From positions 19,973 through 83,972 of the forward strand of contig CAZJCK010000003.1 of NCBI GenBank assembly GCA_964544635.1: a stretch of 64,000 nucleotides of DNA, read 5' to 3'. The position numbers and the translations under genes were made by a program. Source of the stretch: an uncultured Ignavibacteriales bacterium (lineage in GTDB: Bacteria; Zixibacteria; MSB-5A5; GN15; FEB-12). Below, piece after piece: positions 52,696 through 64,000 of this stretch; position 1 is the stretch's first letter, and every line of letters starts with the position of its first letter. The notes beneath the pieces were generated by a model, which worked only from the letters and a program-made list of their open reading frames with translations, did no database searches and had not been told where the DNA came from.

Positions 52696-52887
52696 ACCGC
52701 GTTACCTCGCATTTCGTTTGTGCCACCAGAAGGCAGCGCAACCGGGTCTCACTGCCAGTGCTGATCAAGATAGGCAGCAGACGGAAAAAGACAAGTGCAT
52801 TATGGGCGCGGCAGACCACCGCACCGGTTGTGCAAGGGACGGCAGCCCTTCAAAGTGGCGTCCTGTCCTGTGGCTCAATTACAATTG

Positions 52888-52920
52888 AAAAACCCCACCG
52901 CGCGCGGCGCGCAGTGGGGT
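52888..52920 (-). terminator. Rho-independent terminator of ppdK
   Basis: On the minus strand: CCCCAC-tgcgcgccgcgcgcg-GTGGGG followed by TTTTTC. Lies 28 nt after the ppdK stop. Confidence 0.6.
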
Positions 52921-52947
52921 GCTCAGATTGAGTCTGGTCTGCAGCCG

Positions 52948-55773
52948 TTACTTCTCGGACTGTTTCATGGCTGCCTGGGCGGCCGCGAGGCGTGCAATCG
53001 GCACGCGGAACGGCGAACAGCTGACATAGTTCAGGCCAACGTCGGCGCAGAACTCGATCGACTTGGGATCACCACCGTGCTCGCCGCAGATACCAACTTT
53101 GAGGTCCGGATTGGTCTGGCGACCTTTCTCCTTGCCCATGCGTACGAGCTGCCCGACACCGTCCTGATCAAGGGTGACGAACGGATCTTTCGGCAGGATC
53201 TCGTTTTCGACATAGAAGCCGAGGAACTTACCGGCGTCGTCGCGGGAGAAGCCCATCGTCATCTGGGTCAGGTCGTTGGTGCCGAAGCTGAAGAAGTCGG
53301 CGGCCTCGGCGACCTCGTTGGCCGTCAGGGCGGCTCGCGGGATCTCGATCATGGTGCCGATCATGTAGTCGAGTTTCTTGATACGATACTTGGAAATGAC
53401 CTCGCGGGCGACGCGTTCGATCACCTCGCGCTGGTTCTTCAGTTCGTTGACATGACCAACCAGCGGTACCATGATCTCGACCGACACCTTCTTCTTGTTC
53501 TTCTGGAGCTCGCAGGCGGCCTCGATGATGGCGCGCGCCTGCATCTCGGTGATTTCCGGGTAGGTGACACCGAGGCGGCAACCGCGATGACCGAGCATCG
53601 GGTTCTGTTCATCGAGTTCGTGAATACGAGCGAGGATCTTGGAGAGCCGTTCCTGCTGTTCTTCGAAGTCGTCGGACTTAGGGTCGAGCTTCTTGAGCTT
53701 CTCTTCGATTTCCTCTTTGCGCGGCAGGAATTCGTGGAGCGGCGGATCGAGCGTGCGAATCGTGACCGGCAGGCCGTTCATCGCATCGAAGATCTCCTTA
53801 AAGTCGGATTTCTGGAAGGGCAACAGTTTGTCGAGTGCGGCCTGGCGGCCCTCCGGCGTATCGGCGAGAATCATCTCCTGAACGATCGGGATACGATCCT
53901 CGGCGAAGAACATGTGCTCGGTGCGACAGAGGCCGATACCTTCGGCACCGAACTTACGGGCCTGGGTAGCATCGCGCGGGGTGTCGGCATTGGTGCGCAC
54001 CCGCATCACGCGTACCTCGTCGGCCCAGGCCATGAACTCGGAGAATTCGCCGGACAACTCGGGTTCGACCGTCGGCACGCTGCCGAGGATAACCTCGCCG
54101 GTGGAACCGTTGAGGGTGATCGTCTCCCCTTCCTTAATGATCAGCTTGCCGATCTGGAACTGCTTCTTCTTGGCATTGACGCGCACCGCCTCGGCTCCCG
54201 AAACACAGCACTTGCCCCAGCCGCGGGCAACCACTGCAGCGTGGGAGGTCATCCCCCCGCGCGACGTGAGAATGCCGGCCGCCTCGCGCATACCGTCGAT
54301 ATCGTCCGGATTGGTTTCCTCGCGAACCAGGATGGTCGGGCGAGTCTTCTTGGTGTTGGCGACGACATCTTCGGCCGTGAAGTAGACGGCGCCGGTGGCG
54401 GCGCCGGGGGAAGCGGCCAGTCCCTTGGCGACGACATCATACTCGGCCTCGGGATCGATACTCGGGTGCAGCAACTGGTCAAGCTGGATCGGCTCGATGC
54501 GCATGAGCGCTTCTTCCTTGGTGATCAGCTTCTCCTTGACCATGTCGACGGCGATCTTGATGGCCGCCTGCACGGTGCGTTTGCCGTTGCGCGTCTGCAA
54601 CATGTACAGCTTGTTTTCCTGGATGGTGAATTCGAAGTCCTGTACATCGCGATAATTCTTCTCCAGCTTGTCGGTGATGTCCTTGAGTTGCTTGTAGACA
54701 ACCGGCATCTCGTCCTGGAGTTGCTTGATGGGCGAGGGGGTGCGGACACCGGCGACGACATCTTCACCCTGGGCATTGACCAGGTACTCGCCGTAGAATT
54801 CCTTCTCACCGGTTGAAGGGTTGCGGGTGAAACCGACACCGGTGCCGGAGGACGTGCCCATATTGCCGAAGACCATCATCTGGATATTGACGGCGGTGCC
54901 GATATCGCCCGGAATATCGTGAACACGGCGATACGAGATGGCGCGGGGATTGTTCCATGAGCGGAAGACAGCGTCGCGGGCCATGCGGAGCTGGTGCATC
55001 GGGTCTTCCGGGAAATCCTCGCCGGTCTTCTTCTTGATGATCTTCTTGAACTGCTTGATAATTTCCTTGAGGTCGTTTTCCTGCAGCGAGCTGTCCTGCT
55101 TGATGCGACGTTCTTCCTTGCGCTTTGAGATAACGTGCTCGAATTCGTCCTTGTCGATACCCATCACGACATTGCCGAACATGGCGATGAGGCGACGGTA
55201 GTTATCGAGAGCGAAGCGCTCATTGCCGGTCTTCTCAGCCAGGCCGGCGACCGATTCTTCGTTCAGGCCGAGGTTGAGGATGGTGTCCATCATGCCGGGC
55301 ATGGAGAAACGGGAGCCGGAGCGGACCGAGACCAGCAGGGGATCGGACGGATCGCCGAGCTTCTTGCCGGCCGACTTTTCGAGTTTGGCGATATACGACT
55401 CGAGCTCTTCGTCGATATCCTTCGGGATCGCCATATTGTTGTCGTAGTAACGCTTGCAGACCTCGGTGGTGATGGTAAAGCCGGCCGGGACGGGTACCCC
55501 GGCAGCGCTCATCTCGGCGAGGTTGGCGCCCTTGCCGCCGAGCAGGTCGCGCATGGTGGCATCACCGTCAGCCTTACCGTCACCGAAAAAGTAGTAATAC
55601 TTTCCCTTGGTTGGCGTTTTACCCTTGCGGGCGACGGTCTTGCGGGTGGTTTTCTTTGTCGTTTTCTTCGCTGTGGTTGTTTTCGTGGTTTTCTTCGCAG
55701 TCTTTTTGGTCGTTTTCTTCTTGCTGGTGGACTTCTTCCGTGTCGTCGTTTTGGCAGCTTTCTTCGCTGTCAT
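52948..55773 (-). CDS. ppdK: Pyruvate, phosphate dikinase with a 57-aa Lys/Thr-rich N-terminal extension
   Basis: 941 aa with LLGGKGANLAEM, the GGMTSHAAVVARG phospho-His region and a TNDLTQ PEP-utiliser C-terminal domain. RBS GGAGG lies 4 nt before the ATG at 55773. Confidence 0.95.
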   Translation of the reverse strand: MTAKKAAKTTTRKKSTSKKKTTKKTAKKTTKTTTAKKTTKKTTRKTVARKGKTPTKGKYYYFFGDGKADGDATMRDLLGGKGANLAEMSAAGVPVPAGFTITTEVCKRYYDNNMAIPKDIDEELESYIAKLEKSAGKKLGDPSDPLLVSVRSGSRFSMPGMMDTILNLGLNEESVAGLAEKTGNERFALDNYRRLIAMFGNVVMGIDKDEFEHVISKRKEERRIKQDSSLQENDLKEIIKQFKKIIKKKTGEDFPEDPMHQLRMARDAVFRSWNNPRAISYRRVHDIPGDIGTAVNIQMMVFGNMGTSSGTGVGFTRNPSTGEKEFYGEYLVNAQGEDVVAGVRTPSPIKQLQDEMPVVYKQLKDITDKLEKNYRDVQDFEFTIQENKLYMLQTRNGKRTVQAAIKIAVDMVKEKLITKEEALMRIEPIQLDQLLHPSIDPEAEYDVVAKGLAASPGAATGAVYFTAEDVVANTKKTRPTILVREETNPDDIDGMREAAGILTSRGGMTSHAAVVARGWGKCCVSGAEAVRVNAKKKQFQIGKLIIKEGETITLNGSTGEVILGSVPTVEPELSGEFSEFMAWADEVRVMRVRTNADTPRDATQARKFGAEGIGLCRTEHMFFAEDRIPIVQEMILADTPEGRQAALDKLLPFQKSDFKEIFDAMNGLPVTIRTLDPPLHEFLPRKEEIEEKLKKLDPKSDDFEEQQERLSKILARIHELDEQNPMLGHRGCRLGVTYPEITEMQARAIIEAACELQKNKKKVSVEIMVPLVGHVNELKNQREVIERVAREVISKYRIKKLDYMIGTMIEIPRAALTANEVAEAADFFSFGTNDLTQMTMGFSRDDAGKFLGFYVENEILPKDPFVTLDQDGVGQLVRMGKEKGRQTNPDLKVGICGEHGGDPKSIEFCADVGLNYVSCSPFRVPIARLAAAQAAMKQSEK

Positions 55774-55923: not shown

Positions 55924-56280
55924 TCACATCGTAAAGAACCGCTCCCCCGACAGGATCTTGTCGATCATGCGGACGGTCTTCTCGACCGGGGCATGCATGA
56001 GATCGGACGAATGAAAGGTGCTCCGAATGACCTCGCGAGGGGCGACAAAGCTCGATTTGCCGCGACCGGCGCGCAGTTTCTTCTTGTGGGTGAGATTGTA
56101 CTGTCGCTGGTATTCCTTGGCTTTCTCCTTGTGCATCTGGTAATACCGGCGCTGGTATTCGCGACGCGCTTCAGCCGTGGACAGCGATCCTTTTCTGGTA
56201 GTCTTCTTTTCCGCCGGGGAGTCCTGCGTGATGTTGTCTTGAGTGGCGGCCTTTTCGGGACGTGCCATAACCTCCCTCAC
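55924..56280 (-). CDS. Hypothetical small basic protein
   Basis: 118 aa, K/R/Q/Y-rich centre (REYQRRYYQMHKEKAKEYQRQYNLTHKKK). No family recognised. Confidence 0.4.
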   Translation of the reverse strand: MREVMARPEKAATQDNITQDSPAEKKTTRKGSLSTAEARREYQRRYYQMHKEKAKEYQRQYNLTHKKKLRAGRGKSSFVAPREVIRSTFHSSDLMHAPVEKTVRMIDKILSGERFFTM

Positions 56281-56761: not shown

Positions 56762-57577
56762 TCAACCTTCGCTGGGCTGCTCCTTCGGACGGTTAACGTG
56801 CTGGACTATCTCCTTGACGACATACCCGACCAACAAAACCACAACCAACCAGAAGAAAATCAGGAAGGTGCCGCTGTAGGCCGGGTTGGGATCGGGGGTG
56901 GCATCGAAACCGAATAACACCCAGCGGTTGATCTCCTGCACCCGGTTGATGAAGAGCGAAATACGGGCCATGACGGTGAAGCCGAAGGAGGCGCCGAAGC
57001 CGATCATCAGCACCCAGATACCGAACTTGGCGACCGCGCCAAAGGTGCCGGTGTGGGCCTTGGAAAAGAAGAAATAGATCAACGCCGCGAAAGTGCCGGC
57101 AAAGATGATGACCTGGGAGTAACCGGAAGCGATGTCGAGGTACGAATTGCCCCAGAAGTTGGCCCAGTCGATGTCGATCATCGAGGCTGCCAGCTGCTTG
57201 TTGACACGGTTGGCCATCTCCAGGGGGATGGCGATGCCGGTACTGATCCCGATGTAGAGCGCCATCGGCCAGCGCGATAGCCAGGAGTACTGCTTGGAGA
57301 AGCGCGCCCACATCATCAGGCCGAGGATAGCCGGCACCAGATACCAGGGGGCATCGGAGTTCAGCCAGAGCACATACCAGTCGCCATCCTCAAGGCGCTC
57401 GAACAGGTTCGGCACCAGGCCGTTGTGCCAGAGAATGATGACAAAGTAGCCGGCCGAGACGCCGACCACGAGATGTTCGGCGAACTTGTAGAACGGGTTG
57501 TCCTTGTACAGGAACGAGAAAGTCGCAAGCGTCACGAAGGTCGCAAACGTCAGCCAGATATACGTAGTCAAATCCAT
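56762..57577 (-). CDS. Uncharacterised polytopic membrane protein, module subunit A (copy 1)
   Basis: 271 aa from the ATG at 57577, 1 nt after the B1 stop. Shares FSFLYKDNPFYKFAEHL, YFFFSK and GIWVLMIGFGASFGFTVMARISL with the paralogue at 60873..61691. Confidence 0.75.
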   Translation of the reverse strand: MDLTTYIWLTFATFVTLATFSFLYKDNPFYKFAEHLVVGVSAGYFVIILWHNGLVPNLFERLEDGDWYVLWLNSDAPWYLVPAILGLMMWARFSKQYSWLSRWPMALYIGISTGIAIPLEMANRVNKQLAASMIDIDWANFWGNSYLDIASGYSQVIIFAGTFAALIYFFFSKAHTGTFGAVAKFGIWVLMIGFGASFGFTVMARISLFINRVQEINRWVLFGFDATPDPNPAYSGTFLIFFWLVVVLLVGYVVKEIVQHVNRPKEQPSEG

Positions 57578-57578
57578 A

Positions 57579-58457
57579 CTAACGTCCCCCTTCCCTGCGT
57601 TCTTGCCGTCTCGAGACGAAATACCCGACATTGCCGATAATGATGAACAGGATGATGGTTATGTGCGCGAACAGTTGTATTCGCATACCGTCGCGCGCCA
57701 GGCCGTAATTGTCGGCCAGCTTCTCGTACTGTGCCGCGCCGAGCAGCCCGCCCATGATACCGAAGACCTGGCCGGAGCCGAGGAACGGGTAGTACTGGGC
57801 GGTCATGACGCCGGTAAGACCGAGGGCCAGCGGGAAGTTGAACCGTCCCTGGCCGTAGGAGATCCAGAAGTCGGTGATGTTACCGCCGGAAAGGTCGATG
57901 ACACAGGCGACGTCGTCGTAGTTGAGCACGCCCTGCATCATCGGCAGTGAATCGAGCGGCGTACCGTAGTAGTCGCGCGGGAAGGGGAGGCGGAAATCCT
58001 GCCCCATACCGAGGATAACGAGGGCAAAGTATGGCTTGTAGCCAAGGAACGTATAGTCGACGCCACGGATGATTTCACGTCCTTCATACTCGATGTCGTT
58101 GTAGACGCGGGTTTCCCTGAGGGAATCGGCGATATCGCGCAGGGCCTGGTCGGCCATGCCCGGTCCGTTCTGCGACAGGGCGGTGACCAGCACCTTCAAC
58201 TCCTTTCGCCAGCAGTGTTCGATGATGGCGTACGTCATCGGGTGCAGCTCGGCCAGGTTGTTGGGATCATAGTCGATGGCGATCATCACAATCTCGCCGG
58301 GCGGCAGGGAGTCGACAAAATCGTAGATGACGCGCACTTCGTCTTCGACGATGATGGGCACCTCGAAGTCGGCGACATAGGCCCAGATGCAGATGATGAT
58401 GAGGAACAGGAAGATCCAGCGCCGGTCAAGACGCATTAAGCGATCAAATAAATTCAT
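57579..58457 (-). CDS. Uncharacterised bitopic protein, module subunit B (copy 1)
   Basis: 292 aa with N- and C-terminal TM helices around a soluble domain. Shares SLPPG..IAIDYDP, LGYK, GGLLGAAQYE and IIGNVGYF with 61688..62614. Confidence 0.75.
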   Translation of the reverse strand: MNLFDRLMRLDRRWIFLFLIIICIWAYVADFEVPIIVEDEVRVIYDFVDSLPPGEIVMIAIDYDPNNLAELHPMTYAIIEHCWRKELKVLVTALSQNGPGMADQALRDIADSLRETRVYNDIEYEGREIIRGVDYTFLGYKPYFALVILGMGQDFRLPFPRDYYGTPLDSLPMMQGVLNYDDVACVIDLSGGNITDFWISYGQGRFNFPLALGLTGVMTAQYYPFLGSGQVFGIMGGLLGAAQYEKLADNYGLARDGMRIQLFAHITIILFIIIGNVGYFVSRRQERREGGR

Positions 58458-58469
58458 AGCGACAGCACC

Positions 58470-59294
58470 TTATCCTTTCCCCATGTATCCCCGCTCGATA
58501 CCGAGGATGACTTTCATGGCGGTTGCGACGATGCCCAGACCGATACCGATAATGATGGCGCGTTGCGCCGCGAGGTTCGGAACGTTCATCAGCCAGGTGG
58601 ACGTTTTGGCGACATATTCCCCGATGCCGAACGGGAAGTAGGGGAAGAATCGCAGCATGAGAATGAGCGCCGACACCAGCAGCAGCGTGGCCAGCAGGTT
58701 GCGGGCGCGGAAAGCGCGGTAAGCGGCCGAGGCTATAAAGAAGGCCAGCAGCGCGAACATCGTCGCCAGGATCGGCATCATGACATAGTCAAAGAAATGC
58801 CGGAACATGCTGCTCTCGAGTCCCTCCTGGGTATAGAAGTAGAACGCCCAGGAATTGTCGACCACGGCGATGATCACCGAGGCGGCAACGAAAACAAGCG
58901 TTGCAATACCCCACTTGGTGCGATCACCGGAATTTGCCCCTGACATCATCAGCTGCATGATCGAGGCGATCGACAGCAGGTAGGTGATGATGAAGACAAA
59001 GAAGAGTCCCCACGAGTCGCCGGTCCGCGAGGTCCAGCCGAAGAGCATCATGATGAACAGGCCGGCCAGGGTGACATACGAGTACCCCCAGTTGGGCTTG
59101 CGGGTTCGGATGCGCTGGACCGAAACTTTGAACAGCGACCAGATCCCCAGAGCAAGGGCGAAGATGCCGATGATAAGAATCCAGTCGAGCAGGAATTCGT
59201 AGACCCACGTCGAGATTTCGTGGGGCACAAAGTATTGGAATGCCATGAAGATTCCGAATACGAAGACGAGGGCGTATGGTATTTGTCGTTTCAT
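58470..59294 (-). CDS. Uncharacterised polytopic membrane protein, module subunit C (copy 1)
   Basis: 274 aa. Shares LLAFFIASAAYRAFRARN, NLAAQRAIIIGIGLG and ILGIERGYMG with 62611..63285. Confidence 0.75.
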   Translation of the reverse strand: MKRQIPYALVFVFGIFMAFQYFVPHEISTWVYEFLLDWILIIGIFALALGIWSLFKVSVQRIRTRKPNWGYSYVTLAGLFIMMLFGWTSRTGDSWGLFFVFIITYLLSIASIMQLMMSGANSGDRTKWGIATLVFVAASVIIAVVDNSWAFYFYTQEGLESSMFRHFFDYVMMPILATMFALLAFFIASAAYRAFRARNLLATLLLVSALILMLRFFPYFPFGIGEYVAKTSTWLMNVPNLAAQRAIIIGIGLGIVATAMKVILGIERGYMGKG

Positions 59295-59305
59295 ATGGAA
59301 TCCCT

Positions 59306-60838
59306 TTAGTCAGTTACCTTGAAGATTTCGACAAACCAGTCCAGGCCGAGGTTGGCCGCGATCAGGCCGGCCACGGCGCAGACCAGGATGATCGCCTTGG
59401 CGTAATCCTGGGCCTTGAGCGAGCCGAGCAGGACCGGTTCGCGACCGAGATAGGCCGAGGCGGCATACAACTCCTCACCGATGAGGGTGTAGTCGGTCGC
59501 CACGATGAAGAACGGCAACTGCGCGATTTCGTCGGTTCCGGAGATCTGAATCGATCCGGCGAGGGCGCCGGTCTCGGCGAGAATGAGTGACTCGGCGAAG
59601 AACTTGCCCATATAGACGTTGGTGGCCGGGTGTTCCCGCAGCATGATACCGTTGACCGCCGCAACGTAAGCGAACTGCGACTGGGTGACGAAGAAGACAA
59701 TATCTTCGCTGTAGTCGTCGGCGCGGCCGGCGTCGAAGTACGACGACTTGACCACTTCCTGGGCGACGCTCATGACGATCGGGTCGTAGGTCGGCACCAG
59801 CAGTTGCGTCTGGTACTCGGCGACGCGTTTGGCGACACGGCCAAGAATGGTGAACGATGCGATGGTTGCAATATCGGCGGCGGTACCGAGACCGAGGACA
59901 TAGAGAATGGGCCGTCCCATCTCGGTGGCGCGGCCGATCGCTTCATCGACCGCTTCAATGCCGGCCAGTGGCCGGACATAGAGCTCGGTGCCGCCCTTGG
60001 CGCGTTGCACCATGCCGATGACCAGCGTGAAAAAGATCAGGACAGCGATCAGCACGGGGATCCGCCCGCCGTTAAACCACTGCCCCGACGATTGCACCGG
60101 CCCGACGACTTCGGATTCGGAGAACAGTGTCGTGGTATCGTCGATCTTGACGGCGGTCAGGACCTTGTAGTAAAGGTCGGTGTAGTCGGGAATAAAGTCG
60201 GGATTGGCGCGACTCTTGGAACCACGGTCATAGCCGATAGTGTCACCCCGGGCGGCCAGGCCGACGGTATCGAAGCGCCCTTCGTTGGGATAGGCTTCGT
60301 AGGCCGGGGTAAGCCGCTGCATGAGCGAATCGATCCGCAGCTCGAACTGCCCCTCGAACTGTTTAAACTGCTCTTCCCTGTCCTGGGCTGCGAGTATCTG
60401 TTCCAGATAGGCCATGCGCCGGGCGTTGAAGGCGATGATGCTGTCCTGGACCTCGGCCGTATCGGCGCGAAGCGAGTCGTTCTGGGCCTGCAAGAGGTCG
60501 ATCTGGGTCTGCATCTTCGCCCATTCGCCTTCCAGGGAGATCATCCAATTGAGCGTACCCCGTTGCACCATGACCGAGTCCCAGAGGTAGGGAATCCACC
60601 GCATGATACGGTAGCCGCTGACAAAGCGCCGACCCGCGCCGTCGTCGGCCGACAAGTCCCAGGTCAGGGTAATGGCATGACCATGGTCGTCGTCGGTATC
60701 GAAGGCGTTCACGTTGGTGACCGGCGCCGGGGGTGGAATGCTCTGCGTGGTATCGACGGTCGTGTCGGGCTGGTCCTGAGACCAGGCCGGCAGTGCGACC
60801 AATACCATCACCAGAATTCCTGCCAGTATACGTTTCAT
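59306..60838 (-). CDS. Uncharacterised membrane protein, module subunit D (copy 1), with a signal peptide, FN3-like/coiled-coil ectodomain and conserved C-terminal domain
   Basis: 510 aa. The C-terminal 240 aa share EAVDEAIGRATEMGRP, FFAESLILAETG and AQLPFFIVATDYTLIGEELYAASAYL with 63297..64000. Confidence 0.75.
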   Translation of the reverse strand: MKRILAGILVMVLVALPAWSQDQPDTTVDTTQSIPPPAPVTNVNAFDTDDDHGHAITLTWDLSADDGAGRRFVSGYRIMRWIPYLWDSVMVQRGTLNWMISLEGEWAKMQTQIDLLQAQNDSLRADTAEVQDSIIAFNARRMAYLEQILAAQDREEQFKQFEGQFELRIDSLMQRLTPAYEAYPNEGRFDTVGLAARGDTIGYDRGSKSRANPDFIPDYTDLYYKVLTAVKIDDTTTLFSESEVVGPVQSSGQWFNGGRIPVLIAVLIFFTLVIGMVQRAKGGTELYVRPLAGIEAVDEAIGRATEMGRPILYVLGLGTAADIATIASFTILGRVAKRVAEYQTQLLVPTYDPIVMSVAQEVVKSSYFDAGRADDYSEDIVFFVTQSQFAYVAAVNGIMLREHPATNVYMGKFFAESLILAETGALAGSIQISGTDEIAQLPFFIVATDYTLIGEELYAASAYLGREPVLLGSLKAQDYAKAIILVCAVAGLIAANLGLDWFVEIFKVTD

Positions 60839-60872
60839 ATGCTCTGCCTCGTTGTTGCAGATCAGTAGTTAA

Positions 60873-61691
60873 TCAGCTAATTATTCCAAGCCAGTCTTTG
60901 AACAGGAACGTCATGCGACCGACGAGGAGGGAGATGCGACCCATCACGGTATAGCCGAACGATGCCCCGAAGGTGATCATCAGGATCCAGATGCCCACCC
61001 GCGAGGCAACGCCGAAGGCGCCCCTGTGCTCCTTACTGAAGAAGAAGTAGACCAGTCCGGTAAAGACGCCGATAAAGATGCTCCAGTTGAGGATGATACC
61101 GACGAACTGGCCGGTTGCGTTCAGGTCGAAATTGGAGAAAAAGGCGCCGAGGCCGGTCCACGGGTTCTCGCCGGTCGACGAGCCGAGCAGCGGGATATAG
61201 GTCGCCGAAATCTGCTTGATGAAATCGGAGCGAAGGTAGCGCACGAAGTTCAGGCCGGCGGTGGTTCCGACGATAAAGGCCAGCGGCCAGCGCGACAGCC
61301 AGCCGGCTTCTTTCGACAGGCGCATCAACAGCAGGATACCGAGGATGACCGGAATCCAGTAGAAGAAGTTGAGCGGCCCGGCGTGGTAAGGTACCTGAAA
61401 CCAGTTGGACAGGCCCTCGGAGATGCGCGGGATGAGGTTGCCGATGAGGGTCGACCAGAAGCCCTGGACCATCCAGAAGGCGGCCGAGACGCCGACAAAC
61501 AGGTGCTCGGCGAACTTGTAGTACGGATTGTCTTTGTACAGGAAGGAGAAAATCGCGAGCGTCAGGAAAGCAGCGACGGTAAGCAGGAAGGCGTCCATGA
61601 GTGAATTCTCAGCCTCAAAAGCTTTACCGACCCAGCTCACGATGAACAGGACGATCACGACAGCGAGTATTATCAACGACGTCCGGCTCAT
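60873..61691 (-). CDS. Module subunit A (copy 2)
   Basis: 272 aa with FSFLYKDNPYYKFAEHL, YFFFSK and GIWILMITFGASFGYTVMGRISL. 4-nt overlap with B2. Confidence 0.75.
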   Translation of the reverse strand: MSRTSLIILAVVIVLFIVSWVGKAFEAENSLMDAFLLTVAAFLTLAIFSFLYKDNPYYKFAEHLFVGVSAAFWMVQGFWSTLIGNLIPRISEGLSNWFQVPYHAGPLNFFYWIPVILGILLLMRLSKEAGWLSRWPLAFIVGTTAGLNFVRYLRSDFIKQISATYIPLLGSSTGENPWTGLGAFFSNFDLNATGQFVGIILNWSIFIGVFTGLVYFFFSKEHRGAFGVASRVGIWILMITFGASFGYTVMGRISLLVGRMTFLFKDWLGIIS

Positions 61692-62614
61692 ACGCTGGTC
61701 AGTTCCTTCTTCTTACGTCCGGGACCTCGGAAGTAGGCGATGTTGCCGATGATAATGAAGGCCATGATCACCATGTGCGCGAGCGTCTGCGGCCCCATCA
61801 TGCGCAGGCCGGGTGTCTCCATGTCATTGAAGCGCGGGTAAGCGTCGCGTAACTCCGACTCATACTCCGCCGCGCCCTTGATGCCACCCAAAATGCCGAG
61901 GACCTGCTGGGGATAGTACGGATACAGCTGCGGCGCGACAACGGCGGCGACGCCGACGCCGATCGGGACACCGGCCGGATCGCCGACAAAGAGTACCCAT
62001 TCCTTCGGACCGGGCCGTCCGCCGCCCAGTGCGACGATCAGGTCGAGGTCGGACGACGATCGGATATCGCGGAACAGATCGATGGAATCAAGCGGGACAC
62101 CGTTGGCGTCGGTCGGGAACATTTTTTTGATGTCGGAGACGATAACGTTGAGCACACCTTCGTTACCCGCCTTGTAGCCGAGGCTGACATAGTCGACACC
62201 GTCGATCTTGTCAGGAAACTGCGGGAAAATGTACCGGTTGAGCGACTGCGACAGCAGTGACTGGCCGGTCGCCCAGAGCGACATGAAGATGACCCGGTGG
62301 TTCCTGGCGAGACAATGGGCGGTGACGGCATTCGCCATCGGCTGCACTTCCGGTGCCATGGCCGGGTCGAAATCGTATGAAATGAGGACCTTCGATCCTT
62401 CGGGCAGGCTTTCAATCTTGTCAAAGAGCGCCTTGACCACCGGGGTAGCCTTTTCATCGAACGTAATCGGGAATAACAGCGGTGCCGCCACGGCGAAGGC
62501 GATGAACAGGAAGACAATGCGGCGCCCTACCTCGCGTCCGGTAATAGAGCGGAACAGCAGCCAGGCGAGGCCACCAAAAATGAGAAAGAGCGAGATAACA
62601 ACGCCGAGGTTCAT
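61688..62614 (-). CDS. Module subunit B (copy 2)
   Basis: 308 aa with SLPEG..ISYDFDP, LGYK, GGIKGAAEYE and IIGNIAYF. 4-nt overlap with C2. Confidence 0.75.
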   Translation of the reverse strand: MNLGVVISLFLIFGGLAWLLFRSITGREVGRRIVFLFIAFAVAAPLLFPITFDEKATPVVKALFDKIESLPEGSKVLISYDFDPAMAPEVQPMANAVTAHCLARNHRVIFMSLWATGQSLLSQSLNRYIFPQFPDKIDGVDYVSLGYKAGNEGVLNVIVSDIKKMFPTDANGVPLDSIDLFRDIRSSSDLDLIVALGGGRPGPKEWVLFVGDPAGVPIGVGVAAVVAPQLYPYYPQQVLGILGGIKGAAEYESELRDAYPRFNDMETPGLRMMGPQTLAHMVIMAFIIIGNIAYFRGPGRKKKELTSV

Positions 62615-63285
62615 TTTTCTTCTCCCAGGTAGGAACGTTCCACACCGAGGATCAGTCGCAACGACATCGCGATCACCCCGAGGCCGATGCCGATCATGAT
62701 GGCACGCTGGCCGGCAAGGTTGGGGCCTTTCATGATCAGGATGGCCATATTGGGAATTTCCAGAGCCGAAAGGGCATCCGGAATCCAGGCGGTAAGCATC
62801 ATACCGAACGGTGTTCGACCGAGCAGGATGATAAAGGCGGCGACCAGCAGCAAGGTGGCTTCACGGTTCTTGGCCCGGAAGGCGCGGTAGGAGGCCGACG
62901 CGACGAAGAACGCCAGCAAGGAGTACATCGTCGACTGGAGCGGATTGATGACATAGTTGAAAACCGTCTGGAACCACATGCCTTCAGAGGTCACGCTGGT
63001 GGTGATATCGCCGGGGTTGCCGACTTTGAACAGCCCAATGATGAGCATGAACAGGAAGCCGGCGACGGTAACGGCGGAGAAGCCCCAGTCTTTCTTCTGA
63101 TTGATCAGCTTGGTCGTATGGACACGCATCAGGTTGCCGCCGCCAAGGAAGAAGGCGAAGACGGCGATGATATCGAAGAAGACGGTGAACTCTTCACCGA
63201 GGCCTTCCGCCGGCGGGATGAAGACTGAAAAGATCAGCACGACACCGACGACAAACGTTATGACCAGCGGAACTACTCTACGCAT
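62611..63285 (-). CDS. Module subunit C (copy 2)
   Basis: 224 aa with LLAFFVASASYRAFRAKN, NLAGQRAIMIGIGLG and ILGVERSYLG. Confidence 0.75.
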   Translation of the reverse strand: MRRVVPLVITFVVGVVLIFSVFIPPAEGLGEEFTVFFDIIAVFAFFLGGGNLMRVHTTKLINQKKDWGFSAVTVAGFLFMLIIGLFKVGNPGDITTSVTSEGMWFQTVFNYVINPLQSTMYSLLAFFVASASYRAFRAKNREATLLLVAAFIILLGRTPFGMMLTAWIPDALSALEIPNMAILIMKGPNLAGQRAIMIGIGLGVIAMSLRLILGVERSYLGEEK

Positions 63286-63296
63286 ACCACATCATC

Positions 63297-64000
63297 CTAC
63301 TGTGTCTCAAAAATCCTGATCATGAAGTCGGTAATTTCCTGCATAATCGGCAGGTCCCACGCTTCCGAGAAAGTAAGGCCGATCGTTCCGATGATGATGG
63401 CGACCATGGCGATTCCCTTGCCGACATCCTGGCCCTTCAGCGAGCCGAGCTGGCGCGGTTCCCCCGACAGATAGGCCGAGGCGGCGAACAGTTCTTCCCC
63501 GATGAGTGTAAAGTCGCAGGCGGCGATAAAGAACGGCAGCTGCGCCGGCCGGGCGGTGCCGGCAATCTGGATGGCGCCGATCGAGTTACCGGTCTCGGCA
63601 AGAATCAGCGATTCGGCGAAGAAGGCGCCCAGCAAAAAAATGGTGGCCGGCTTTTCGCGCACCATGATACCGTCGACGGCCGCGACATACCCAAACTGTT
63701 CGTCGGTCACATAGTTGACCATGTCATCGCTGTAGGCATCGGGCCGACCAGCCGACATGTACGACGCTTTTATCGTTTCACGGGCGGCGGTCATGACCAG
63801 CGATCGGGAGACCGGCATGAAAATGCGGGAATCGTAATCAGCGATGGTGCGCGAGATGCGACCGAGGATAGTCAGGGCGGCCAGGGTCTGGACATCGTCG
63901 AGATCGTGAATACCCGGGATGAAGAGCACCGGGCGGCCCATTTCGGTGGCGCGACCGACCGCTTCGTCGATCGCCTCGAGGCCGGCGATCTTGCGCACAA
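63297..64000 (-). CDS. Module subunit D (copy 2), 5'-truncated by the window edge
   Basis: The reading frame is open to the window end. Aligns with the C-terminal domain of D1 starting from its RPLAGIEAVDE region, so the N-terminus lies beyond 64000. Confidence 0.7.
   Translation of the reverse strand, partial: VRKIAGLEAIDEAVGRATEMGRPVLFIPGIHDLDDVQTLAALTILGRISRTIADYDSRIFMPVSRSLVMTAARETIKASYMSAGRPDAYSDDMVNYVTDEQFGYVAAVDGIMVREKPATIFLLGAFFAESLILAETGNSIGAIQIAGTARPAQLPFFIAACDFTLIGEELFAASAYLSGEPRQLGSLKGQDVGKGIAMVAIIIGTIGLTFSEAWDLPIMQEITDFMIRIFETQ

Follow-up and report, generated by a model that had tools for sequence, protein, structure and literature searches.

A tandemly arrayed four-gene membrane module with a DUF6754 subunit, found across mostly uncultured bacterial phyla

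What kind of membrane machine is encoded by the eight genes that occupy one end of a 64,000-nt stretch of DNA (hereafter the window; contig CAZJCK010000003.1, positions 19,973 to 83,972) from a bacterium titled uncultured Ignavibacteriales and placed by GTDB in the Zixibacteria? A preliminary description, made from the letters alone, had read these genes as two diverged copies of one four-gene unit, D-C-B-A, encoding the subunits of a single membrane complex that could be assigned to no known family. The paralogy was borne out by BLASTP among the eight products, which paired A1 with A2 (42% identity, E 3e-53), B1 with B2 (32%, E 5e-40), C1 with C2 (34%, E 8e-42) and D1 with D2 (54%, E 2e-81), all four at E < 1e-39, and gave no significant match between families. 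The motifs that had been quoted as shared within the pairs were all present in the translations.

Whether the four genes belong together was addressed by comparing genomes. We scanned an alignment of D against one genome per GTDB species, obtaining at least 600 matched stretches and at least 524 relatives confirmed by tblastn; the best 80 loci are described by their labels below, and we mapped hidden Markov models (HMMs) of A, B, C and D on the six-frame open reading frames (ORFs) of 81 loci (L001-L081) from at least 10 mostly uncultured phyla. The set contained 132 D genes, 12 of them cut by a contig end; in 115 of the 120 that were testable, C, B and A came next, in this order and on the strand of D. 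The five exceptions comprised lone D paralogues, one D-D tandem (L081:8459-9589) and one apparent B-A fusion; the lone D genes, which lack C, B and A, were seen in Fermentibacteria a few kb from a complete unit (L036:10736-11929, L037:16668-17846 and L043:9647-10825). Of the 81 loci, 47 had one complete unit, 10 had two, 16 had three and 8 had none. Among the best 80 loci, the carriers were metagenome-assembled genomes (MAGs) labelled Zixibacteria, Eisenbacteria, Fermentibacteria/Aegiribacteria, WOR-3/Stahlbacteria, Poribacteria, Cloacimonadota, Edwardsbacteria (TA06) and CSSED10-310, with a few labelled Planctomycetota or Latescibacteria. Searches for homologues of A and of D each gave at least 8,000 matches, and apart from two labels discussed below their source names were only "hypothetical", "DUF6754 domain-containing" or "fibronectin type III domain-containing". 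Co-occurrence of the four families outside this genome, on which the preliminary description had staked its proposal, was thus found across many phyla, and at the level of genome comparison the D-C-B-A module is shown to be a real, co-inherited functional unit in many uncultured phyla. Because D precedes C-B-A in nearly every testable case across so many phyla, the predicted status of the four products as subunits of one inner-membrane complex is strongly supported.

In the window, all eight ORFs lie on the minus strand, co-directional and where they had been placed, and form two units, listed here from the window edge inwards.

63297..64000, minus strand: D2, 3' part only, 233 aa comprising the DUF6754 domain and the C-terminal transmembrane (TM) helix, with the N-terminus beyond the window edge; PF20539 match at E 1.7e-110, and 81% identity to the D of copy 2 in L001
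62611..63285, minus strand: C2, 224 aa, six TM helices, N-in/C-in, with motifs FFVASASYRAFRA and PNLAGQRAIMIGIGLG; no Pfam or NCBIfam match
61688..62614, minus strand: B2, 308 aa, with two TM helices (the N-terminal one being extra) ahead of a periplasmic α/β-type domain, and a C-terminal TM helix that bears the invariant His and Asn; no family match
60873..61691, minus strand: A2, 272 aa, an extra N-terminal TM helix and a six-TM core
59306..60838, minus strand: D1, 510 aa, full length, supported by the ORF, the PF20539 match and BLASTP paralogy
60776..60838, minus strand: D1 signal peptide, aa 1-21
60065..60775, minus strand: D1 ectodomain (about aa 22-258), in which some 90-130 aa of inserted coiled coil interrupt an Fn3-like β-sandwich
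59321..60085, minus strand: D1 DUF6754 region, aa 252-506, PF20539 match at E 1.3e-112, with a TM helix, Rossmann-like domain and C-terminal TM helix
58470..59294, minus strand: C1, 274 aa, the C core plus two hydrophobic helices contributed by an insert of about 50 aa
57579..58457, minus strand: B1, 292 aa, a TM helix, periplasmic domain and TM helix
56762..57577, minus strand: A1, 271 aa, a six-TM core and an extra C-terminal TM helix
56708..56735, minus strand: intrinsic terminator hairpin at the end of the array, with a T-run downstream and an A-run upstream

The tight spacing was as originally reported: D and C are separated by 11 nt in both units, C2/B2 and B2/A2 overlap by 4 nt (ATGA), and the remaining gaps are 12 nt (C1-B1), 1 nt (B1-A1) and, between the units, 34 nt (A2-D1). 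The A1 start at 57577 agrees with that of its orthologue in L001. The strong terminator that had been proposed to close the array was also recovered: its 12-bp stem includes 7 GC pairs, the loop measures 4 nt and a T-run follows. Given the A-run on its other side, it may work in both directions. The GC content of the array resembled that of the rest of the window, giving no sign of recent import. Long antisense ORFs opposite D1 (59630..60868, plus strand), A2 (61026..61604, plus strand) and a pyruvate phosphate dikinase (PPDK) gene further downstream (52795..54816, plus strand) are the usual artefacts of high GC content and no genes. The extra TM helices, which are specific to one unit or the other (the C1 insert of about 50 aa at 58900..59030, the C-terminal helix of A1 and the N-terminal helices of A2 and B2), are kept in orthologues and could bridge units, such that the array would build one super-complex instead of three independent complexes.

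The number three arises since a syntenic, complete Zixibacteria chromosome (CP070777, our L001) carries three D-C-B-A units in the same neighbourhood, followed, as in the window, by a small basic gene and PPDK. Window units 1 and 2 are orthologous to units 1 and 2 of L001, and their best matches are units 1 and 2 of three-unit arrays. A2 was 100% identical to one protein (P0001), which is encoded on an NCBI contig of 104,860 nt, and about 70% identical to many Zixibacteria proteins. The original count of two units therefore holds within the window, while the array itself most likely comprises three, the third lying beyond the window edge. Among Zixibacteria, subunit B of copy k was 57-78% identical to copy k of other genomes and 30-35% identical to its own neighbours, and since each copy resembles its counterpart elsewhere and not the copies beside it, the array, judged by these identities, is older than the divergence of the sampled Zixibacteria, in line with the old duplication that had been suggested. 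The two- and three-unit arrays of Edwardsbacteria/TA06-type genomes and of Eisenbacteria look like separate, younger duplications.

The genes downstream of the array have features of their own. PPDK (52948..55773, minus strand) has at its N-terminus an extension of about 55 aa that is rich in Lys, Thr and Ala and resembles histone H1 (MTAKKAAKTTTRKKSTSKKKTTKK...), and an extension of the same kind was present in at least 15 Zixibacteria loci, a conserved lineage feature without obvious explanation. Between the array and PPDK lies a gene for a very basic protein of 118 aa (55924..56280, minus strand), to which no family was assigned. It recurs in Zixibacteria loci, its core AEARREYQRRYYQMHKEKAKEYQRQYNLTHKKK being invariant and its C-terminus reading GERFFTM. 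Arrays were also found in MAGs titled "uncultured Ignavibacteriales" or "Ignavibacteria" (L002, L005, L006, L008, L014, L018-L020, L022, L024 and L073), several of which, such as L005, L006, L008, L014, L018 and L019, show the PPDK synteny typical of Zixibacteria, and this suggests that they are taxonomically mislabelled assemblies.

Subunit D is the one component with a formal family. D1 matched PF20539 (DUF6754) over aa 252-506 with 375.5 bits and D2 with 368.6 bits, for a cutoff of 27, so that the claim of no known family stood for A, B and C (Pfam, NCBIfam, PADLOC and PDB) and fell for D, whose family is itself one of unknown function. The picture of D as a TM helix plus a large, partly hydrophobic domain had to be replaced: D starts with a signal peptide and an Fn3-like ectodomain, crosses the membrane by a TM helix to a cytoplasmic Rossmann-like domain, and returns through a second TM helix to a C-terminus outside. 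An AlphaFold2 model of D1 residues 240-510 (predicted local distance difference test (pLDDT) 82, predicted TM-score (pTM) 0.74, from a 118-sequence alignment) started with a TM helix, followed by a six-stranded parallel α/β Rossmann-like domain and, at the C-terminus, by a long helix that ends in a TM segment. Foldseek found nothing in the PDB at E < 1e-3 for this model; the top neighbours were generic Rossmann-type folds (GT-B C-domains, SIS, USP and PP-loop enzymes) with TM-scores of at most 0.44. Matches to G-protein-coupled receptor entries were due to the glycogen-synthase fusion partner of those entries. We rejected D as a GT-B glycosyltransferase: it has a single α/β domain, its best match (2bfw) reached only E 7e-3 and TM 0.34/0.44, and its conserved motif is E-x5-E as opposed to the EX7E type.

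The cytoplasmic domain of D is 53-83% identical across phyla, and its invariants (R50, GRATEMG, AES.L.AETG, which reads AESLILAETG in D1, Q.IAGT and D.T.IGEEL.AASAYL) lie mostly at the C-terminal ends of strands 4-6; no Cys or His is invariant among its conserved columns. The ectodomain varies between homologues from about 35 to more than 1,000 aa. When short and long homologues were compared, it appeared as an Fn3-like sandwich with inserts that differ between lineages, the D1 insert being a coiled coil, and the D1 ectodomain gave weak matches to coiled-coil families (ZapB, DivIC). The fibronectin type III label of some homologues fits this description, as some match PF00041; the ectodomains of ten long D proteins contained no Pfam domain, except for HEAT repeats in one. 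An exhaustive phmmer search with the D core yielded 2,115 clusters at 50% identity, 733 of them at E <= 1e-30, with DUF6754 at the C-terminus in every case.

The topology of the complex was derived from the positive-inside rule, using loop charge bias across 82-98 members per family. C has six TM helices with both termini inside; B likewise has both termini inside, its two TM helices enclosing a net-acidic periplasmic domain of about 227 aa; and the A core has six TM helices with both termini outside, the extra helix (N-terminal in A2, C-terminal in A1) bringing that terminus inside. We infer that B and D, and likewise A and C, are topological mirror images. The mirrored topologies and similar C-terminal motifs had raised the idea of an ancient two-gene duplication (B~D, A~C), which was rejected at the sequence level: the hhalign score of B-D was 24.3, like those of unrelated TM-to-TM pairs (A-D 22.3, C-B 22.5), and that of A-C was at the level of reversed-profile controls. 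In the A2 core the helices pair into three hairpins, whose tight cytoplasmic turns (KDNP, SKEAGW and SKEHRG) are conserved, and family-wide the invariant polar turns read KDNP..E-H and SKEHxG. An AlphaFold2 model of A2 (pLDDT 74, pTM 0.43) showed the extra N-terminal helix and the six core helices as three hairpins, and at that confidence found no neighbour among PDB folds (E >= 1 throughout). Column identity in B and C averaged about 35%. Conservation across the module is thus strongly asymmetric, the cytoplasmic face being conserved and the periplasmic face variable. Several invariant polar or charged residues sit within TM helices or at their ends, namely the His and Asn in the C-terminal TM helix of B, Glu-His at the start of TM2 in A, Gln-Asp..Lys at the last TM helix of D and RAFRAR in C. 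No cysteine is invariant in A, B, C or D, A has at most one or two conserved histidines, and the invariant columns of A-D include no Walker, Gly-rich nucleotide or cofactor-type Cys/His motif. In a complete Zixibacteria chromosome a single frame of 575 codons spans B and A (L016:11646-13370). It could stem from a frameshift in sequencing or from a natural B-A fusion, and in the latter case would favour direct contact between B and A.

We then considered the genes that adjoin the module, looking for recurrent partners; none lies within the window itself. The most widespread association was with a GlmL/MutL-type actin-fold ATPase of ~618 aa, which adjoins the module in 17 loci from at least six clades, mostly together with a protein of ~380 aa that has a barrel-sandwich-hybrid (BSH) domain and faint N-terminal similarity to RnfC-N/NqrA (14 loci). 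The ATPase matches PF13941 over the full length of the family (E 9e-131), but its score of 231 bits lies well below the GlmL equivalog cutoff of 475 bits. About 130 extra aa extend its C-terminus, and its identity between clades is 61-77%. GlmL-family proteins are tied to amino-acid fermentation. We rejected the BSH protein as a biotin or lipoyl carrier, its hairpin lacking a modifiable Lys motif and looking instead like the RnfC-N/NqrA-N type. The pair is divergent from the module in the Zixibacteria closest to the window, co-directional and tight elsewhere, and once placed between two units. Two small membrane proteins, c15 (~150 aa, two TM helices) and c8 (~160 aa), often accompany it, and the set in L001 includes an additional secreted, membrane-anchored protein of 252 aa. 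The c15/c8/MutL-like/BSH set (L001:1-2999, L050:5600-9363, L032:5237-9547 and 14 other loci) may constitute a separate, uncharacterised system.

Other neighbours are catabolic. In an Eisenbacteria clade, gcvT-H-PA-PB, c15-c8-MutL-BSH, two units and lplA stand together. In TA06/Edwardsbacteria-type loci the modules are flanked by dehydrogenase genes of the sarcosine-oxidase/HcnABC/archaeal proline-dehydrogenase type (Fer2_4, Pyr_redox_2 and Fer4 upstream, Fer2_BFD/SO_alpha_A3 and DAO downstream), and the same five genes (34-40% identity) occur 1.3 kb downstream in a Cloacimonas genome (L060). An aminotransferase and a 2-oxoacid:ferredoxin oxidoreductase lie directly upstream in one MAG (L083), a 2-hydroxyacid dehydrogenase gene overlaps the D start in four Fermentibacteria, PPDK is downstream in 15 Zixibacteria loci and the window, and an ADP-forming acyl-CoA synthetase is near the module in Zixibacteria. 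In eight WOR-3-type loci a MazG-like gene overlaps the D start. In one Cloacimonadota locus an ApbE flavin-transferase gene (L077:13058-14110) directly follows the module, probably by coincidence, because neither B nor D has a flavinylation motif.

Taken together, these observations lead us to favour, tentatively and at somewhat less than an even chance, the view that the module is a new multi-subunit transporter or translocase tied to amino-acid or C2-C3 catabolism. We favour it because placement inside or beside amino-acid oxidation operons recurs, because cofactor motifs are absent, because whole units have been duplicated and because the periplasm-facing parts diverge more. From their topology, A and C are predicted to form a membrane core of about 12 helices; D is predicted to clamp its Rossmann-like domain by two TM helices on the cytoplasmic side and to place its variable Fn3-like ectodomain in the periplasm, and B to clamp its acidic α/β-type domain by its own two helices on the periplasmic side. 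The conserved cytoplasmic face comprises the D domain, where invariant Glu, Asp and Arg cluster at the C-terminal strand ends, and the three invariant cytoplasmic turns of A; it could be the coupling or gating site. Since the GlmL-like ATPase and MazG are recurrent partners, this face may be energised or regulated by them, nucleotide-hydrolysing partners (the MutL-type ATPase with BSH in many lineages, the MazG-like protein in WOR-3) serving it. Conformational change would travel through the clamped TM helices to the divergent periplasmic parts, where B and the D ectodomain would set specificity. Judging by the gene neighbours, the substrate would be a small amino acid or C2-C3 acid (of the glycine, proline or sarcosine type), taken up for the catabolic enzymes. 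Tandem units would then be paralogues of different specificity; the earlier suggestion that one transporter or machine has two specificities fits the data, the periplasm-facing parts being those that diverge most.

Several observations weigh against this transporter reading. The putative transport role is read from gene neighbours and topology, and no homology supports it; the A model is of low confidence (pTM 0.43). The MutL-like/BSH pair is missing from the flanks of about three quarters of the loci with enough upstream sequence, the glycine-cleavage link amounts to one clade and one partial case, Poribacteria have aroK/aroB and a sulfatase as neighbours, and many neighbours are lineage-specific and could be housekeeping synteny. 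The peptidoglycan- and capsule-related neighbours (M23, M15, YkuD and Wzi) point elsewhere. The conservation of the D domain is unusual for a transporter accessory domain and looks more like that of a catalytic or bioenergetic core. Finally, neither the window nor 21 loci contained a riboswitch or other leader that would name a ligand.

That conservation is among the best arguments for an alternative that we consider unlikely but with an appreciable chance, in which the module is a cofactor-free, ion-translocating energy-coupling device, like the antiporter-type membrane arm of complex I or Mbh, that moves H+ or Na+, couples its cytoplasmic face to the GlmL-like ATPase and BSH, to MazG or to dehydrogenases, and conserves or spends energy in fermentative anaerobes. 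The D domain and the MutL-like ATPase both show the degree of conservation that core bioenergetic enzymes typically have, invariant polar and charged residues occur within TM helices of A-D or at their ends, modules are found between redox-enzyme subunit genes and directly after a ferredoxin-like gene, an Mbh/Mrp hydrogenase cluster lies upstream in one WOR-3-type locus, PPDK and ADP-forming acyl-CoA synthetase adjoin in Zixibacteria, and the BSH partner faintly resembles the RnfC/NqrA N-terminus. However, no homology connects the module with Mrp/Nuo antiporter subunits, with Rnf/Nqr or with any ion pump, no acidic or Lys residue is invariant mid-membrane, partner adjacency is not universal, and we know of no precedent for an actin-fold ATPase that drives an ion pump. 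A bolder and less probable version would make the module the membrane sector, with about 16-19 TM helices, of a new class of cofactor-free energy-coupling machine in uncultured FCB-type and related phyla, in which the D domain docks the GlmL/MutL-type ATPase and the NqrA-N-like protein and couples nucleotide hydrolysis or amino-acid oxidation to ion or solute movement; to our knowledge, such a principle of coupling has no characterised precedent. The envelope-related neighbours suggest, with similarly low probability, a mechanotransmission machine like FtsEX/MacB or Tol-Pal that controls or positions peptidoglycan hydrolases, capsule or outer-membrane components. B is clamped by two TM helices as in type VII ABC proteins, and the hypervariable D ectodomain, sometimes longer than 1,000 aa or coiled-coil, could span the periplasm. 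An M23 (Csd3/EnvC-type) peptidase gene lies directly upstream in five Cloacimonadota loci, where D is longest, a Wzi outer-membrane protein gene follows A in four WOR-3-type loci, and YkuD and M15 enzyme genes adjoin the module in single loci. Yet each of these neighbours is limited to one lineage, peptidoglycan enzymes are common enough for chance adjacency to be plausible, and the most widespread partners (MutL-like, BSH and catabolic enzymes) are cytoplasmic. No ABC ATPase gene was present in the 115 complete units, and there was no Pfam match to FtsX, MacB_PCD or ABC_transp_aux, no Tol family signal and, for the 5:2 motors (MotAB, ExbBD/TolQR, GldLM), no family match and no invariant mid-TM Asp, the fold evidence for A being weak here (pTM 0.43).

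A redox or respiratory complex, Rnf/Nqr-like or NarI-like, is very improbable and largely refuted. Two of the 120 listed A homologues (P0269 and P0310) carry the automated JGI label "nitrate reductase gamma subunit", ferredoxin and flavoprotein genes adjoin some loci, and ApbE follows the module in one. But none of 125 A members matched PF02665 even at E <= 1, A has at most two conserved His where NarI has four haem ligands, and the A model (pTM 0.43) had no fold match to NarI, so that the label looks like a mis-annotation that could spread. Likewise, A-D had no Pfam or NCBIfam match to the Rnf-Nqr membrane subunits (RnfA/E, NqrD/E, RnfD/NqrB) at E <= 1, nor did that family appear when 125 A, 82 B and 84 C sequences were scanned member by member; invariant Cys are lacking, and the SGAT flavinylation motif is absent from B, whose conserved G.T.V segment differs and is lost in B2. 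The module may also be a very divergent, unrecognised member of a known family, for example of TRAP/TTT type with a tethered binding domain, to which we assign little probability. A, B and C had no Pfam or NCBIfam match, and no family recurred in the per-member Pfam scans at E <= 1. HMM profiles of A, B, C and D, each of 82-98 diverse members, matched no PDB sequence, and the good D model, like the A model, had no significant fold match, in agreement with the original failure to place the proteins in a characterised complex; Pfam curators have kept D as a DUF. Neither A-D nor the per-member scans matched TRAP/TTT domains (DctP/DctQ/DctM, TctC/TctB/TctA), and no EIIC or EIIB match indicated a phosphotransferase system. 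PADLOC models matched none of the eight window proteins or the two partner proteins, and we rejected an anti-phage defence system. A literature search found no mention of DUF6754 or PF20539, and broader searches were equally without relevant result.

If the tentatively favoured transporter or translocase reading is true, the module represents widespread uncharacterised membrane biology in phyla known only from metagenomes. One of its subunits is conserved like core bioenergetic enzymes, three of the four are outside Pfam, and the module has repeatedly been duplicated whole and repeatedly placed in amino-acid oxidation operons. Its function, once known, would fill a recurrent gap in metabolic reconstructions, that of amino-acid uptake or energetic use, and could reveal a new transporter or coupling architecture; the four subunits, the candidate ATPase and the barrel-sandwich partner provide a parts list for testing.

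How does the module compare with systems that are already described? It is outside every characterised family by sequence and, as far as testable, by fold, and DUF6754 is its sole formal membership. D1 and D2 are full-length members of PF20539, an entry for a domain of unknown function that is silent on its three gene partners, on tandem arrays, and on topology and fold. The accessory ATPases of the GlmL/MutL family serve glutamate, ornithine and lysine mutases, whereas the partner ATPase has no mutase genes nearby. Type VII ABC proteins (MacB, LolCE, FtsX) and GldG-type proteins hold a periplasmic domain between two TM helices, as B does and as D does in cytoplasmic mirror image; the likeness is one of architecture alone, given the lack of a sequence or family match and of an ABC ATPase gene and the different subunit count. 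Na+-NQR and RNF offer a parallel in layout, with a six-TM pair of opposite orientation (NqrD/E, RnfA/E; here A and C), a TM-anchored periplasmic subunit (NqrC/RnfG; here B) and a cytoplasmic barrel-sandwich domain (NqrA, the RnfC N-terminus; here the recurrent partner with its faint RnfC-N-like match), but there is no homology, A and C are not detectably related to each other, and the module has no conserved cysteines, flavinylation motif, or NADH, FMN or Fe-S subunit. In comparison with TRAP/TTT transporters, B has a membrane anchor at each end and does not reach the size of typical binding proteins, and the highly conserved cytoplasmic Rossmann-like subunit is an addition without counterpart; what the module does share with them is a set of several small subunits that combines polytopic proteins with a periplasmic α/β domain, often encoded in multiple paralogous operons beside catabolic genes.

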